From assembly GCF_013122565.1 (NCBI RefSeq), contig NZ_CP053258.1: a stretch of DNA of 64,000 nucleotides. One strand, 5' to 3'. This DNA comes from Escherichia coli (GTDB lineage Bacteria > Pseudomonadota > Gammaproteobacteria > Enterobacterales > Enterobacteriaceae). The position numbers are program-made. Positions 15,001-21,000 of this stretch are shown here, in pieces (within the stretch, counting starts at the first letter, position 1; every line of letters begins with the position of its first letter).

Positions 15001-18000
15001 ATCGTTTCACCACGGGATAAGGTTCTGACAATCGCGCCCTGACAGGTAAAACCCTCCCATGGCGAGTAGTCGGCGTTGTCGTGGAGATGGCGATGCTGAA
15101 TTTGTTGGCTCTGACGTGGGTCGATAATCACCACGTCGCCATCGGAACCGGGCGCTAATAATCCTTTTTGCGGCCACAGGCCAAACAGCCTGGCGGGCAT
15201 TGCGCTGGTTAATTCAACAAAGCGTTCCGGTGTTATACGTCCCGTCATCACGCCACTGGAAAACAGTAACTGCATGCGGTTTTCCACACCGGGTAAGCCA
15301 TTTGGGCAGCGACTGAAATCGCCTTTAGAAATTTGCAGGCGTTGAGCCATTGAGAACGTGCAGTGATCGGTCGCCACCACGTCAATCGCACCATCGCTGA
15401 TGCCACACCACAGTTTGTCCTGCTCGCGTACGTTACGCAGCGGTGGGCTAAGAATGAACTTCATGCCATCTTCTGTATCGTAACTGCGTTCGTCCAACAG
15501 GAGATATTGTGGGCAGGTTTCAACCCAGACTGGCTGGTGATTCGCACGGGCAAGACGCAGATAATCCAGACCTAAGCCGTTAGACAGGTGCACGATATAG
15601 AGCGGGGCGTTACCGGCAATTTGTGCCAGGTTAATCATGCGGGCGATGGCTTCCGCTTCGCATTCCAGAGGGCGACTCAAGGCGTGATAGCGCGGCGCGG
15701 TTAACCCTGCGGCGATAAACTCCGCCCGCTTGCTGGCGATAGCCGCATCATTTTCCGGGTGCACGGTGGTCAGCGCGCCGGATTCATGCAGACGGCGTAA
15801 TGCCTGCAAAACCTCGTCATCGTTGAGTTTGTATTGATAGGTTAAATAGAGTTTAAAACTGCTCAGTCCTTCCTCGACCATCATCGGGATTTCGTCGAGG
15901 ATGGCGTGATTAATGTGCTGGATCACACCGTGAAAGCTGTAATCGATGACCGCTTTATGGGCGGCATAACCACGATAAACCTCCAGTTGATGGCGTAACC
16001 GACAGCCGTTTGGGCCAAATCCCATATGGTCAATAATGGTTGTTGTACCGCCACACGCAGCTGCGCGGGTACCGGTAAAAAAATCATCACAACTGCGCGC
16101 GATGCCGACATCAATATTGAAATGCGTATGGACATCCACGCCGCCAGGGAAAACGTAACAGCCAGTGGCATCAATTTCTTCATACGGGAGCTGCGGCGAA
16201 ATATTGTTGCCCAACTGGCGAACAATCCCGCTTTCAATCAGCAAATCCTGTTTGGCTTGTCCATCTGCGTTAACGACAGTGCCGTTTTTGATCAATACGC
16301 GCATAGCAAACTCCAAAAACCCTCCGGCGAACCGGAGGGGAATAAGTGAAGAGTAATTATTCGGTTGCCAGCCAGCTTAACGGGATTGCAGCGTACATCG
16401 CGGCACAGGTCACCAGGTGAGATTTCCAGGTTTTTTCGTTAGGTGCATGCGCTTCAGGTTCTTTACCCGGGCCAAAGCCGATCACCGGAATGCCGTGACG
16501 GCCCATGATAGATACGCCGTTAGTTGAGAAGGTCCACTTATCAACAACCGGCGCTTTGCCAAACAGCCCTTCGTAGGCATTCACCAGTGCTTTAACGGTG
16601 AAGTGATCTTCTTCCACTTTCCAGGTCGGGAAGTAGCATTCGGTTGGGTAAACCAGGCCAGTCCAGGACGGACGGTCGTAGTTGTACATAGAAACAACCG
16701 CGTTAGCTTTCTGTACTGCAGGCAGGGCGCGGATTTCGTCCAGCGCGCCTTCCCAGGTTTCGCCCCAGGTCAGACGGCGGTCAATAGAGACGGCGCAGCT
16801 ATCTGCTACAGCGCAACGGCTTGGGGATGTGAAGAAGATTTCAGAAACGGTGAGGGTGCCTTTGCCGAGGAATTCGTCATAACCCAGACGTTGGGAGAGT
16901 TCTTGTAATTCGCCAAGAATCGGACCCATTTTGAAAATGGCGTTGTCACCGCGTTCTGGCGCAGAACCGTGGCAGCTAACACCCTGAACATCAATACGAA
17001 TTTCCATACGACCGCGCTGACCACGGTATACCTGGCAGTCGGTTGGTTCGGTACTGACCACAAATTCCGGGCGAATGCCGGATTGTTCAATAATGTACTG
17101 CCAGCACAGACCGTCGCAGTCTTCTTCCTGCACAGTACCGGTAACCAGCAGGGTATATTCATCTTCCAGACCGAGGTCTTTAATGATTTTACCGGCATAA
17201 ACCATAGATGCCATGCCGCCTTCCTGGTCGGAAGTACCGCGACCACCGATCAGCTCATCAGTTTCCATGCCTTCGTACGGATCGAAGTCCCAGTTTTTGA
17301 TGTTGCCAATGCCGACGGTATCGATATGAGCGTCCATTGCCACCAGACGCGGGCCGTGGCCGATATAACCGAGAACGTTACCCATCGGGTCGATTTCAAC
17401 TTTATCGAAGCCGACTTTTTCCATCTCTTCTTTAATACGATGTACTACGCGTTTCTCGTCGCAGCTTTCACTGGGAATAGCAACCATGTCGCGCAGGAAG
17501 CGAGTCATATCCGCCTGGTAATCTTTTGCTTTTTCAAGAATCAGTTTGAATGGAATATTCTTAGCCATTATTTTTCTCCAGATTTTTACTCCCCGTTTTG
17601 CAGGGAGCAGTTCCAATAGGGTGATTAAGGTGCTACAGCGTGTTTGCCTTCCCAGACAACTTCGCGGTAGTGCTTCACGTCGGTGTCGCCTTCAGTGCTG
17701 ATAACCAGCACTACGGCATCTTTGTTCAGCGCCAGTTTTTGCATCAGGCTTTGACGTTGCGGGTGATAATGAACCGCCGCGAGAACGCCCAAACCGACAG
17801 CGCCGGATTCACCGGAGATGATGCGCGGGTCGTTGCCGTACGGATTACCCAGCACGCGCATACCTAATGCGGCAACGCTGTCCTGGCAGGAGATGAATTG
17901 GGTGGCGCAGTTACGTAGGATTTCCCAGCCCAGCGGGTTAGGTTCGCCACAGGCCAGGCCCGCCATGATGGTGGCCATATCACCGCCAACGTTGACGATG

Positions 18001-21000
18001 TCGCCTTTGACGCCGGAGCGATAAATACAGTCAGCTTTGTCAGGTTCAACAATAATGCTGTGCAGATTTTGCGGGCTGTAGACGTCGACCAGATAACCCA
18101 GCACACCACCGGCCATTGCACCGACACCGGCTTGCAGCAGAACGTGTGTCGGGGTTACGCCCATTTCACGCATTTGCTCGACGGCTTCATCTGCCAGTGT
18201 TGCGTAGCCTTGCATGATCCAGGTTGGGATTTTAGTGTAACCTTCCCATGCCGTGTCCTGTACCACTTCCCAGCCGTGCTGCTGCGCGTGTTGCATGGTC
18301 AGGCGAACGGTATCGTCATAGTTCATATCCGTGACGATGCACTCGGCACCGAGGTTCAGAATGGCGTCAACGCGTTCCTGAGCAGAACCTTTCGGCATGT
18401 AAATCACCGCATTCTGTCCGAGTTGCTGTGCTGCCCACGCCACACCGCGCCCGTGGTTGCCGTCGGTGGTGGTCGCGAAAGTCATTTTTTCGCCGATGGC
18501 ATTTTTCAGGTGCTCAAATGACAGCGTTTCGATATCAAGATGATATTTTTCACACAATAATTGAGCGATGGCGTACGCACCGCCGAGCATTTTGAAGGCG
18601 TTCAGACCGAATCGTTTTGATTCGTCTTTGACGAGAATTTTCTTCACACCAAAAAGGTTTGCGAGATCGTCCAGCGCACAAAGCGGTGTTGGGCGATAAC
18701 CAGCTATTTTCTGGTGGAACTGGCGCGCCAGTTTGGCCTGGCTTTGCGAAAAGAGCGGTGATGTTTCGCCGTTGAAAAATTTGTTATCGGCGATATCAAT
18801 CTTCAATGAGAAAACGGACATATCCTATCCTTTTGGCCTCTGGAAATAGAGGGCCGACCAGCTGATCGGCCCGAGGGGTTATTTCACGCGTTCTTGCGCT
18901 TCTTTCAGCAGTTGCTCGAGCAGTGCACCTGGTTTGGCGTATTTACGGGACAGGATCATCGCGGCGATGATATAAGGCTTCCAGCTGGCTTCTTTGTAGG
19001 TAGCGATACGGTATTTTTCGAATACGCCTTCAGTCACTTCACCTTCTTTGCAGGATACGCCGCTGATATCAGCTGGCAGGCAGTGCATGTACAGGGCTTC
19101 GCCATCACGGGTCAGTTCCATCATCTCTTCAGTACAATGCCAGTCTTTGTGTTGCGCGTTCTGTGCCAGACACTGTTTTTCCAGTGCTTTTAAGCCTTCG
19201 TGGTCGTTTGCACGCAGCAATTCAGTACGCTCTTCCATCACTTTGTAAGGTGCCCATGACTTCGGATAAACGATGTCTGCGTCTTTGAAGGCTTCTTCCA
19301 TGCTGGTGACCTGACGGAAGCTACCACCGGAGGCTTTAGCATTGTTTTTCGCCACTTCAACCACATCCGGGATCAGGTCGTAGCCTTCCGGATGGGCCAG
19401 GGTGACATCCATACCGAAGCGAGTCATCAGACCGATGATGCCTTGTGGTACAGAGAGCGGTTTGCCATAGCTTGGGGAGTAGGCCCAGGTCATGGCGATT
19501 TTTTTACCTTTCAGGTTTTCCAGTGAACCAAAGTGTTCACGTAACCATGCCAGGTCAGCCATTGACTGAGTCGGGTGGTCAATATCACATTGCAGGTTCA
19601 CTAAAGCCGGACGTTGCGGCAGAACACCCTGCTTGTAACCGTCATCAAGTGCAGCGCCAACTTCACGCATATAGGCGTTGCCTGCGCCCAGATACATATC
19701 GTCGCGAATACCAATAGCGTCGGCGCAGAAGGAGATCATATTGGCGGTTTCACGCACGGTTTCGCCGTGAGCGATTTGTGATTTGCCTTCGTCGAGATCT
19801 TGCTGTGCAAGGCCGAGCAGGTTAAGCGCGGAAGCATAAGAGAAGCGGGTACGAGTGGAGTTGTCGCGGAATACGGAAATACCTAATCCACTGTTAAAGA
19901 CTTTGGTTGAGATGTTTTCAGCACGCAGTGCTTTTAATGCTGCGGCAACGTCCAGTACTTGTTTCAGTTCATCTGGCGTCTGTTCCCACGTTAACAAAAA
20001 ATCTTTCTCGTGAAGGTGAGAGGTCAGCGAATTGATATCCTTAATCAGCTCATTAACAGTTTTCATCATAAAGTCCCGGTAGTGGAATGACAGGCAAAGT
20101 GGTTTATTTCACTGTGACTTGCCAAAGTGATTGGTGTTTTCACAGCTATACTTGGGACTAACAATAAGTGTGCCAGAATTATCCACGGGGCTGCAAAAGA
20201 CTAATTTGACGGATAATGTGTGGGGTTGATCACAAATTGATGCCAGCTTCCGGTTGTTTGTAAAATACGAAAACGTTTGGCTTTTTTTATCGCGTTATTT
20301 ATTTGCTGCTAAGTATCAGAAATAAGATAAAGGGGCAGGCTATCCCTCGTCAGTTTGATAAACTCACCGCCGTAATTCTCATATTGATATAGAAATGTGA
20401 TATCTCTTCCATAATTTCATTAGAAAGTGATAAAAATCTTATGTTTTTATCAAAGCCAATTTCGCCTGAGTTAATATCATCATGATCTGTGAACCATCAA
20501 CGTCTTCAATGATCGACTTTTAAGTAAGTCTGGAAGGTAAAGCTATGGAGCTTGCTACTACGCAGTCAGTATTGATGCAAATTCAACCGACAATTCAGCG
20601 TTTTGCCAGAATGCTTGCCAGCGTTTTGCAGCTTGAGGTTGAGATCGTTGATGAAAACTTGTGTCGCGTCGCCGGAACTGGCGCGTATGGGAAGTTTCTT
20701 GGTCGCCAGTTGAGCGGCAACTCACGCCTGCTCCGCCACGTCCTGGAAACGAAAACTGAAAAAGTTGTGACACAGTCTCGCTTCGATCCCCTTTGTGAAG
20801 GTTGCGATAGTAAAGAAAATTGCCGCGAAAAAGCATTTCTGGGTACGCCTGTCATTTTACAGGATCGTTGTGTTGGGGTGATAAGTTTGATTGCCGTTAC
20901 CCACGAGCAACAAGAGCATATTAGTGATAATTTACGCGAATTTTCTGATTACGTTCGCCATATATCCACCATTTTTGTTTCGAAACTTCTGGAGGATCAG

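Follow-up and report, generated by a model that had tools for sequence, protein, structure and literature searches.

Single-copy stem-loops at three intercistronic junctions of the ygeW-yqeA gene array in Escherichia coli

Three conserved, single-copy RNA stem-loops lie at the junctions between ygeW, ygeX, ygeY and hyuA in the Escherichia coli ygeW-ygeX-ygeY-hyuA-yqeA array, and we lean, with modest confidence, towards the view that they punctuate the transcript and set the relative levels of its cistrons through leaky termination at the ygeY-hyuA junction combined with the blocking of 3'-exonucleases. Operon punctuation by a leaky terminator and mRNA-protecting stem-loops is a familiar class of arrangement, and the present case is real but ordinary. 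The genes form part of the pathway by which gut bacteria degrade uric acid anaerobically, a pathway that is being engineered in probiotic E. coli against urate (PMC12507026). The array was analysed within a 64,000-nt stretch of an E. coli contig (NZ_CP053258.1), referred to here as the window, for which a sequence-only reading had described terminator-like, GC-rich hairpins in every short gap of what looked like one operon.

Gene Array and Promoter

The comparative set used throughout consists of 80 related loci belonging to nine clades, almost all of which share the order of the five genes (Table 1); a hairpin is counted where its folding energy is -12 kcal/mol or lower. The sole mapped promoter for the ygeW-yqeA unit is a sigma54 promoter, TGGCACACTTATTGTT, which is identical to ChIP-seq site OS30, located 80 nt upstream of ygeW (PMC4591121). 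A single operon with graded expression from ygeW through hyuA, as had been suggested, is plausible. None of the genes has an entry in the supplements of Dar and Sorek 2018 (PMC5927463), Adams 2021, or SMRT-Cappable-seq, a likely consequence of the operon being silent in standard media, and a literal literature search for the hairpin sequences returned no match.

Table 1. Positions in the window of the genes and junction features of the ygeW-yqeA array.
Feature	Position	Strand	Remarks
ygeW, ygeX (dpaL), ygeY, hyuA, yqeA (arcC) array	13939..20066	-	hairpins at the first three junctions
sigma54 promoter	20160..20175	-	upstream of ygeW
ygeW	18879-20066	-	
ygeW-ygeX hairpin, GGGCCGAUC-AGCU-GGUCGGCCC	18851..18872	-	9-bp stem; begins 6 nt past the ygeW stop
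ygeW-ygeX tail, UCUAUUUCC	18842-18850		interrupted, marginal U-tract
ygeX (dpaL)	17625-18821	-	
ygeX-ygeY hairpin, UGCUCCCUG-CAAAA-CGGGGAGUA	17587..17609	-	9 bp including G-U pairs, then an A-run
ygeY	16357-17568	-	
ygeY-hyuA hairpin, CCCUCCGG-UUCG-CCGGAGGG	16320..16339	-	8 bp, 7 of them G-C
U5 tract and hyuA Shine-Dalgarno	16311..16319	-	U5 16315-16319, then GGAG 16311-16314; hyuA ATG 16302-16304
hyuA	14919-16304	-	
hyuA-yqeA gap	14872..14918	-	hairpin-free; internal contrast
yqeA (arcC)	13939-14871	-	

Structures at the Junctions

Folding of the mRNA strand confirmed a stem-loop in each of the three gaps, with energies of -18.3 kcal/mol (centroid) for ygeW-ygeX, -14 kcal/mol for ygeX-ygeY and -16.6 kcal/mol for ygeY-hyuA. 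The ygeX-ygeY hairpin had been placed at 17585-17605, which is 2-4 nt away from its real span, and the generalization to every short gap holds for these junctions but not for that between hyuA and yqeA, where the E. coli fold contains no hairpin (z +0.70) and related loci have none either; in other taxa hyuA and yqeA overlap by 4 nt or lie 12 nt apart. Against dinucleotide shuffles, the E. coli folds are well supported at ygeX-ygeY (z -3.13) and ygeY-hyuA (z -2.79), but that at ygeW-ygeX reaches a z of only -1.07, with 31 of 200 shuffles equally stable. The ygeW-ygeX score is unremarkable because the gap is GC-rich, and for this hairpin, as for ygeY-hyuA, strong support comes from the comparative data.

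With stems of 8-9 bp and loops of 4-5 nt, all three resemble the GC-rich stem (approximately 5-14 bp) and short loop of an intrinsic terminator, and they part company in what follows the stem. The tail at ygeY-hyuA scores 4.7, where reference E. coli terminators span 3.5-4.8, the ygeW-ygeX tail is marginal at 3.2, and the ygeX-ygeY tail (UAAAAAUC) scores 2.3, which is background level; a consensus terminator scan likewise flags the first two and passes over the third. The T5 tract reported directly before the hyuA ribosome-binding site is exactly where it was said to be, and it is kept in all E. coli variants examined. The label "terminator-like" is thus apt for one hairpin, borderline for another and misplaced for the third: judged from sequence, ygeY-hyuA appears to be the only canonical intrinsic terminator among them, ygeW-ygeX would be a weak terminator at most, and ygeX-ygeY, which is followed by an A-run, is predicted to be non-terminating.

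If termination at ygeY-hyuA were efficient, the hairpin would mark the true end of an operon, with ygeWXY and hyuA-yqeA as separate units and hyuA served by an unmapped promoter of its own. The canonical form of the hairpin would suit such an arrangement, as would the literature name "ygeWXY", which implies a boundary at this very point (one paper gives "ygeW" alone), and the absence of yqeA from the list of the YgeV iModulon. That same iModulon, however, includes hyuA along with ygeWXY; scans with sigma70 and sigma54 patterns found no promoter near hyuA, and none is reported there in the main text of the ChIP-seq study (PMC4591121). Furthermore, the Shine-Dalgarno (SD) sequence begins straight after the U-run, leaving no space for a 5' UTR, and most relatives carry the same hairpin without a U-tract. 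A true operon end at this junction is therefore considered quite improbable.

Conservation in Related Bacteria

Orthologous hairpins are present in 65 of 68 loci at ygeW-ygeX, where they lie a median of 7.5 nt past the stop and 34 nt ahead of the start, and in 57 of 63 at ygeY-hyuA. Strength and conservation are both lowest at ygeX-ygeY, where a hairpin is found in 26 of 52 loci and is missing if the gap is 26-33 nt. Median z-scores over loci (dinucleotide shuffles) follow the same ranking, at -2.68 for ygeY-hyuA, -1.91 for ygeW-ygeX and -0.92 for ygeX-ygeY, with -0.24 for the hyuA-yqeA control. Several genera have lost the ygeX-ygeY hairpin and compact betaproteobacterial versions of the array are devoid of all three; none of them can therefore be essential.

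The sequences of the hairpins vary widely while their pairing is retained. Over the nine clades there are 56 distinct versions at ygeW-ygeX, 22 at ygeX-ygeY and 52 at ygeY-hyuA, with a between-clade alignment score per length of about 0.3, and among E. coli strains substitutions either sit in loops or preserve pairing. At ygeW-ygeX, 94.8% of alignment cells are paired, one pair is CG in 10 sequences and UA in 10, and the covariation score was matched by none of 500 shuffles; the closing pair of ygeX-ygeY shows a compensatory UA/CG change. Structure-aware counts at ygeY-hyuA gave double changes at five of nine pairs, again equalled by 0/500 shuffles, although MAFFT-based covariation undercounts this junction owing to a one-column shift of E. 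coli, which a model-based alignment remedies in part while being biased to the modelled structure. Conserved positions, compensatory changes and turnover of the stems together argue for selection at the RNA level and against a sequence-specific DNA site.

The tails behave differently. They are richer in U at ygeW-ygeX and ygeY-hyuA than at ygeX-ygeY across loci, and the ygeY-hyuA tail score in E. coli is on par with that of real terminators, all of which, together with the consensus scan, could be taken to mean that the three hairpins are partial intrinsic terminators producing stepwise attenuation, as a literal reading of the original observation would have it. Against this stands the A-run after the ygeX-ygeY stem in E. 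coli, with no U-rich tail in any of 42 orthologous hairpins, and the fact that most taxa have no U-tract at the other two junctions (at least five U within the 8-nt tail in 10 of 66 ygeW-ygeX and 9 of 60 ygeY-hyuA hairpins) yet keep the hairpins. Stepwise attenuation at all three is accordingly rated as unlikely. Across the nine clades, the conserved part is the hairpin and not the U-tract, which suggests that the shared role depends on the hairpin; a barrier to RNA decay or processing is the more likely common function, rather than termination as such.

Tail scores also vary by lineage: a U-tail of terminator grade is limited to certain lineages, such as Escherichia (4.7) and Morganella (4.6-5.0), and is lacking in others, such as Erwiniaceae (about 1.6), and the hairpin remains in all of these. 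A more speculative possibility, to which we attach limited credence, is that the junction hairpins punctuate the uricolytic operon in an ancient and hard-wired manner, having been kept from the Enterobacterales through Aeromonas, Vibrionaceae and Shewanella to part of the Betaproteobacteria. The hairpin would then be the constant element and the U-tail an evolutionary dial by which read-through into hyuA-yqeA is tuned to pathway flux, with a strong tail in Escherichia and in Morganella and no tail in Erwiniaceae; engineered tunable intergenic regions would have here a counterpart in nature.

The proximity of the ygeY-hyuA hairpin to the SD sequence (median of 4 nt from the end of the stem) raises the question of whether the hairpins act instead on translation, by masking or unmasking the SD for coupling or by shielding cistrons from re-initiating or scanning ribosomes. 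An additional, outer helix that pairs the SD with sequence just past the ygeY stop is frequent in the minimum-free-energy folds, and the sole hairpin-free junction is the tightly coupled hyuA-yqeA. Sequestration of the SD by this outer helix was nevertheless rejected by a flank-shuffle test on 49 loci, in which the median probability of the SD being unpaired was 0.31 with natural and 0.28 with shuffled 5' flanks (Wilcoxon p = 0.99 for "less") and no locus fell at or below the 10th percentile. The ygeW-ygeX hairpin, 34 nt from the start codon, is in any case remote from the SD, and a role in translation is held to be very unlikely.

Genomic Background and Repeats

Hairpins of this strength are common in E. 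coli. Among other co-directional gaps of 30-130 nt in K-12, 20 of 36 hold a hairpin of -13 kcal/mol or lower (3 of 12 for gaps of 40-70 nt), so that the notion of three hairpins in a row as a statistically remarkable occurrence was rejected, and the occurrence of a hairpin is by itself a poor guide to any specific role. The frequency of such structures in intergenic DNA, the unimpressive E. coli z-score at ygeW-ygeX and the losses in some lineages would all be expected if the hairpins had no function of their own and were chance palindromes, decayed REP-type repeats or DNA-level protein-binding sites. Conserved positions, compensatory changes and the swapping of stem sequences between clades speak against this. 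In addition, each gap sequence occurs at exactly one place per genome in approximately 5,165 genomes and a model of the ygeY-hyuA hairpin (R1) found no second match in 911 kb, which rules out REP/BIME or any other dispersed repeat. An Rfam search (E <= 10) gave nothing meaningful at the three hairpins and no REP-type match; ygeX-ygeY and ygeY-hyuA were blank, and at ygeW-ygeX the only overlap was with SorY (18844-18901), which scored 17.1 bits where the gathering score is 111 (E = 8.8). With nothing near a gathering score, membership of a known Rfam cis-regulatory RNA family was rejected. The absence of function is thus a reading to which we give scarcely any weight.

Matches to REP-related Rfam families within the window are confined to the region downstream of yqeA. 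The idea that the three hairpins are copies of one motif was likewise discarded, as they are unlike in stem, loop and context, and R1 recovers ygeY-hyuA orthologues only.

Proposed Mechanism and Significance

In the favored scheme, a polycistronic ygeW-ygeX-ygeY-hyuA-yqeA transcript would start at the sigma54/YgeV promoter. The ygeY-hyuA element, with its GC stem, UUCG loop and U5, would act as a leaky intrinsic terminator in E. coli, at which some polymerases would halt after ygeY while the remainder would continue into hyuA-yqeA. All three hairpins, once folded, would act as barriers to the 3'-to-5' exonucleases PNPase and RNase II following a downstream endonucleolytic cut, such that upstream cistrons would outlive downstream ones in the way known from malE-malF and from the hairpins that follow menB and menC. 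Termination and decay protection together would be expected to give a gradient of ygeW >= ygeX >= ygeY > hyuA, yqeA.

Should a substantial share of transcripts be terminated at the ygeY-hyuA element, driving the array from a strong promoter in front of ygeW would under-deliver hyuA and yqeA, and weakening or removing the hairpin or the U5 would be a simple means of rebalancing the pathway. The locus also offers a clean natural case, comprising three unrelated hairpins, conservation of structure and not of sequence, and a lineage-variable U-tail. Since structure is conserved while the U-tail varies among lineages, the termination and decay-barrier roles should be separable experimentally.

Comparison With Known Systems

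Leaky internal intrinsic terminators, or attenuators, occur within operons, for example at rplL-rpoB. The ygeY-hyuA element resembles them in that a GC-rich stem with a short loop is followed by a U-run, all between cistrons of the same pathway, and in preceding a gene that has no mapped promoter of its own; the set differs from them in that a proper U-tract follows just one of the three hairpins and is not conserved among relatives. The same layout as at ygeY-hyuA exists at the E. coli fiu-ybiX junction (L089:45744-45784), where GC hairpin, U5, GGAG and start codon also fall within about 41-52 nt, although the sequence is unrelated and the operon a different one. In lying immediately upstream of a ribosome-binding site, with the stem ending 4-5 nt before the SD, the ygeY-hyuA hairpin recalls in its layout the RNase E-generated 5' protective hairpin of the papBA type, although the single-stranded segment upstream of it is short, at about 14-17 nt. 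REP/BIME elements, as in the phnD-phnE, phnK-phnL and alsB-alsA gaps, are likewise GC-rich palindromes between co-directional genes, whereas the hairpins following ygeW, ygeX and ygeY are single-copy, shorter and devoid of the REP consensus.

The closest parallel is with the operon-internal protective 3' hairpins at malE-malF and, consecutively, after menB and menC, which bring about differential mRNA decay (Dar and Sorek, 2018; PMC5927463). Here, as there, stable stem-loops lie just 3' of cistrons within a polycistronic unit, several follow one another in one operon, and their structure is conserved in related species, in this case related enterobacteria; a fall in abundance from 5' to 3' would be expected. 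The ygeW-hyuA hairpins depart from that set in being wholly intergenic, most of its protective structures being located inside the downstream coding region, and from the REP element of malE-malF in being unique sequences.

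Gene Cluster and Junction Hairpins

The ygeW–ygeX–ygeY–hyuA–yqeA cluster lies in a part of the window that is 96–99% identical to E. coli chromosomes; it is missing from approximately 255 of 5,426 complete E. coli genomes and is plasmid-borne in one E. coli record. Consecutive genes are separated by gaps of 57 (ygeW–ygeX, here W–X), 56 (X–Y), 52 (Y–hyuA), and 47 nt (hyuA–yqeA), and since the genes occupy the minus strand, hairpins have to be assessed on that strand. RNA folding finds one in each of the first three gaps, as had been proposed from the sequence alone, with the X–Y stem (previously placed around 17585–17605) shifted by a few bases. 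The T5 tract noted before the hyuA ribosome-binding site is likewise present, the Y–hyuA stem being followed by UUUUU, GGAG, seven bases, and the hyuA AUG. hyuA–yqeA is the only one of the four junctions without a hairpin, and folding of this gap gives no structure (z +0.70, where z is fold stability relative to dinucleotide shuffles of the same gap). The window carries a rare X–Y gap allele, with A5 after the hairpin versus A6 in K-12 and BL21; gaps at least 99% identical to it occur in only 8 of 5,166 E. coli genomes.

Positions of genes, hairpins, and other features in the window
Feature	Position	Strand	Details
ygeW	18879–20066	minus	
ygeX/dpaL	17625–18821	minus	
ygeY	16357–17568	minus	
hyuA	14919–16304	minus	
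yqeA/arcC	13939–14871	minus	
W–X hairpin	18851–18872	minus	9-bp stem; centroid −18.3 kcal/mol
X–Y hairpin	17587–17609	minus	9-bp stem; −14 kcal/mol
Y–hyuA hairpin	16320–16339	minus	8-bp stem, UUCG loop; −16.6 kcal/mol
hyuA–yqeA gap	14872–14918		
A5 of X–Y allele	17582–17586	minus	
Block before ygeX	18822–18845	minus	AAAAGGAUAGGAU
Sigma54 site OS30	20160–20175	minus	TGGCACACTTATTGTT
Sigma54 site OS31	10346–10361	minus	GTGGTGCGATTGTTGCT
REP-like palindromes	13728–13930		downstream of yqeA

Against dinucleotide shuffles, the X–Y and Y–hyuA gaps both stand out (z −3.13 and −2.79); W–X is not distinguished (z −1.07), because a gap so rich in GC folds well in any arrangement. Genomic background was drawn from all co-directional, non-pseudogene neighbor pairs with gaps of 30–130 nt in five 50-kb stretches of a K-12-type genome. 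Of the 36 gaps obtained, 20 had a simple hairpin at −13 kcal/mol or below (for those of 40–70 nt, 3 of 12); terminators and REP elements were among these structures, along with other types. E. coli gaps of this size tend to exist because a hairpin occupies them, so three in succession are unremarkable. The fiu–ybiX junction of K-12 (a 41-nt gap at 45744–45784 of background stretch L089) carries the GC hairpin GUGGGGC-GCAG-GCCCCAC followed by U5, GGAG, and the start codon; as this is the Y–hyuA architecture, the layout of a terminator running into a Shine-Dalgarno sequence recurs in E. coli.

Conservation of the Hairpins

A YgeY search limited to one genome per species returned 80 loci spanning Enterobacteriaceae, Hafniaceae, Morganella, Yersiniaceae and allies, Erwiniaceae, Aeromonas, Vibrionaceae, Shewanella/Ferrimonas, and Betaproteobacteria. 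Gene order is retained in nearly all, and spacers are maintained at the three hairpin junctions (generally 40–80 nt across Enterobacterales). Between hyuA and yqeA there is mostly either a 4-nt overlap or a spacer of 12 nt, and this arrangement in most other taxa suggests that translation of the pair is tightly coupled.

Junction hairpins across loci (distances are medians)
Junction	Hairpin of −12 kcal/mol or below	Median z	Stop to stem (nt)	Stem to start (nt)	Distinct hairpin sequences	At least 5 U in 8 nt after stem
W–X	65/68	−1.91	7.5	34	56	10/66
X–Y	26/52	−0.92	22.5	26	22	0/42
Y–hyuA	57/63	−2.68	14	15.5	52	9/60
hyuA–yqeA		−0.24				

The hairpin sequences turn over, with between-clade alignment scores per length of about 0.3. 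Compensatory changes were assessed in Enterobacteriaceae, whose gaps are alignable. The W–X helix has 94.8% of its cells paired; one of its pairs is CG in 10 sequences and UA in 10, and double changes occur at four of eight pairs. For Y–hyuA, aligned with a structural model, they occur at five of nine. Neither covariation score was reached by any of 500 shuffles. At X–Y, the closing pair switches between UA and CG. Approximately 5,165 of 5,426 E. coli genomes have each gap in single copy, on which ground REP-type repeats were rejected for the three hairpins. In the few E. coli variants examined, the substitutions fall in the loops or turn G-C into G·U, keeping the stems and the U5 run. Because of these compensatory changes, the sequence turnover, the single-copy state, and the sparing of stems, the three hairpins are regarded as unique, selected RNA structures; none matched an Rfam family.

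Lineages with compacted junctions have lost hairpins, for example Kluyvera and Cedecea neteri at X–Y and Rubrivivax and Ideonella at W–Y, which shows that the hairpins are modulators and not essential parts. Five betaproteobacterial loci (L049, L056, L059, L074, and L076) are without ygeX, so that ygeY directly follows ygeW; their longer W–Y gaps (63–128 nt) hold hairpins and the compact ones (26–34 nt) hold none. L074, L076, and the related locus L055 have no hyuA match, and L059 ends before that position. In the Vibrionaceae, Shewanella, and Ferrimonas loci (L061, L064, L066–L073, and L077–L081), gaps are far longer (100–360 nt) and the gene after hyuA is 38–41% identical to E. coli YqeA, and is therefore a different carbamate-kinase paralogue.

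U-Tails and Termination

Partial termination, one of the sequence-only reading's suggestions for the operon, is plausible at Y–hyuA, marginal at W–X, and excluded at X–Y. A consensus terminator scan placed W–X and Y–hyuA, not X–Y, among its top matches. The graded U-tail score of E. coli Y–hyuA is 4.7, clear E. coli terminators in the background set scoring 3.5–4.8; the W–X score is 3.2, and that of X–Y, 2.3, equals what random positions give. X–Y is ruled out as a terminator in either direction, since the T-run on the opposite strand precedes the stem. The Y–hyuA tail is strong in Escherichia and Morganella, as well as in some members of Hafniaceae, Shewanella, and Aeromonas; it is weak in the majority of the remaining Enterobacteriaceae (e.g., GUCUGGAG) and absent from Erwiniaceae. 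The W–X tail is strongest in Vibrionaceae and Morganella. Because the U-tail is lineage-specific, the hairpin is the constant feature and the terminator-grade tail an add-on of some lineages.

Promoters and Transcription Unit

The only sigma54-type site with one mismatch in the cluster, TGGCACACTTATTGTT, lies upstream of ygeW and has exactly the sequence of OS30, a ChIP-seq site located 80 nt ahead of that gene (PMC4591121). The published sites also include OS31 (GTGGTGCGATTGTTGCT), assigned to ygfK (PMC4591121). Promoter pattern scans of the cluster found no promoter-like site near hyuA. The PRECISE-1K paper describes a sigma54-dependent ‘ygeWXY’ operon, whose boundary would fall exactly at the Y–hyuA hairpin; the YgeV iModulon lists hyuA alongside ygeW, ygeX, and ygeY, the outcome expected from leaky read-through. 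Term-seq and full-length-transcript supplements hold no entries for the cluster genes, consistent with standard media leaving the operon silent. RNA-seq has been performed on a probiotic strain engineered to carry a strong promoter ahead of ygeW (PMC12507026).

The array actually ends at the region of REP-like, GC-rich palindromes downstream of yqeA, which has sub-threshold Rfam matches to the REP-derived naRNA4 and ES036 and explains the several places per genome returned by a first BLAST search. Immediately before the ygeX start, a block of about 20 nt is nearly invariant in Enterobacteriaceae (GAAGGAUAAGGAYAG; AAAAGGAUAGGAU in E. coli). Its two GGA motifs exceed the need of a Shine-Dalgarno sequence, and the block might serve as a regulatory site, of the CsrA type or another.

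Proposed Mechanism and Relation to Known Systems

On the best-supported reading, the three stem-loops act as punctuation in a single sigma54-driven polycistronic mRNA, tuning relative cistron levels. In E. coli, Y–hyuA would act as a leaky intrinsic terminator, with the hyuA Shine-Dalgarno sequence starting straight after the U-run; W–X might terminate weakly and X–Y would not terminate. All three would be barriers to 3′→5′ exonucleases following downstream cleavage. In E. coli, the distance from stop codon to hairpin is 6–17 nt, and from this spacing and known ribosome footprints we infer that ribosomes can terminate there without having to melt the hairpins. Translational coupling through an outer helix, pairing the hyuA Shine-Dalgarno sequence with sequence directly after the ygeY stop, was rejected, as the natural flanks hide that sequence no more than shuffled ones. 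The sequence-only interpretation is partly supported, graded expression within one operon being a plausible prediction.

What is new here is only the documentation of these hairpins as conserved with sequence turnover over a broad range of Proteobacteria, with U-tails varying by lineage; the scientific surprise is low, and the practical relevance is to engineering of the uricolytic pathway. The hairpins belong to the well-known kind of operon-internal terminator and protective hairpins: the exonuclease-barrier mechanism is established for malE–malF and has been proposed for the consecutive hairpins after menB and menC (PMC5927463).
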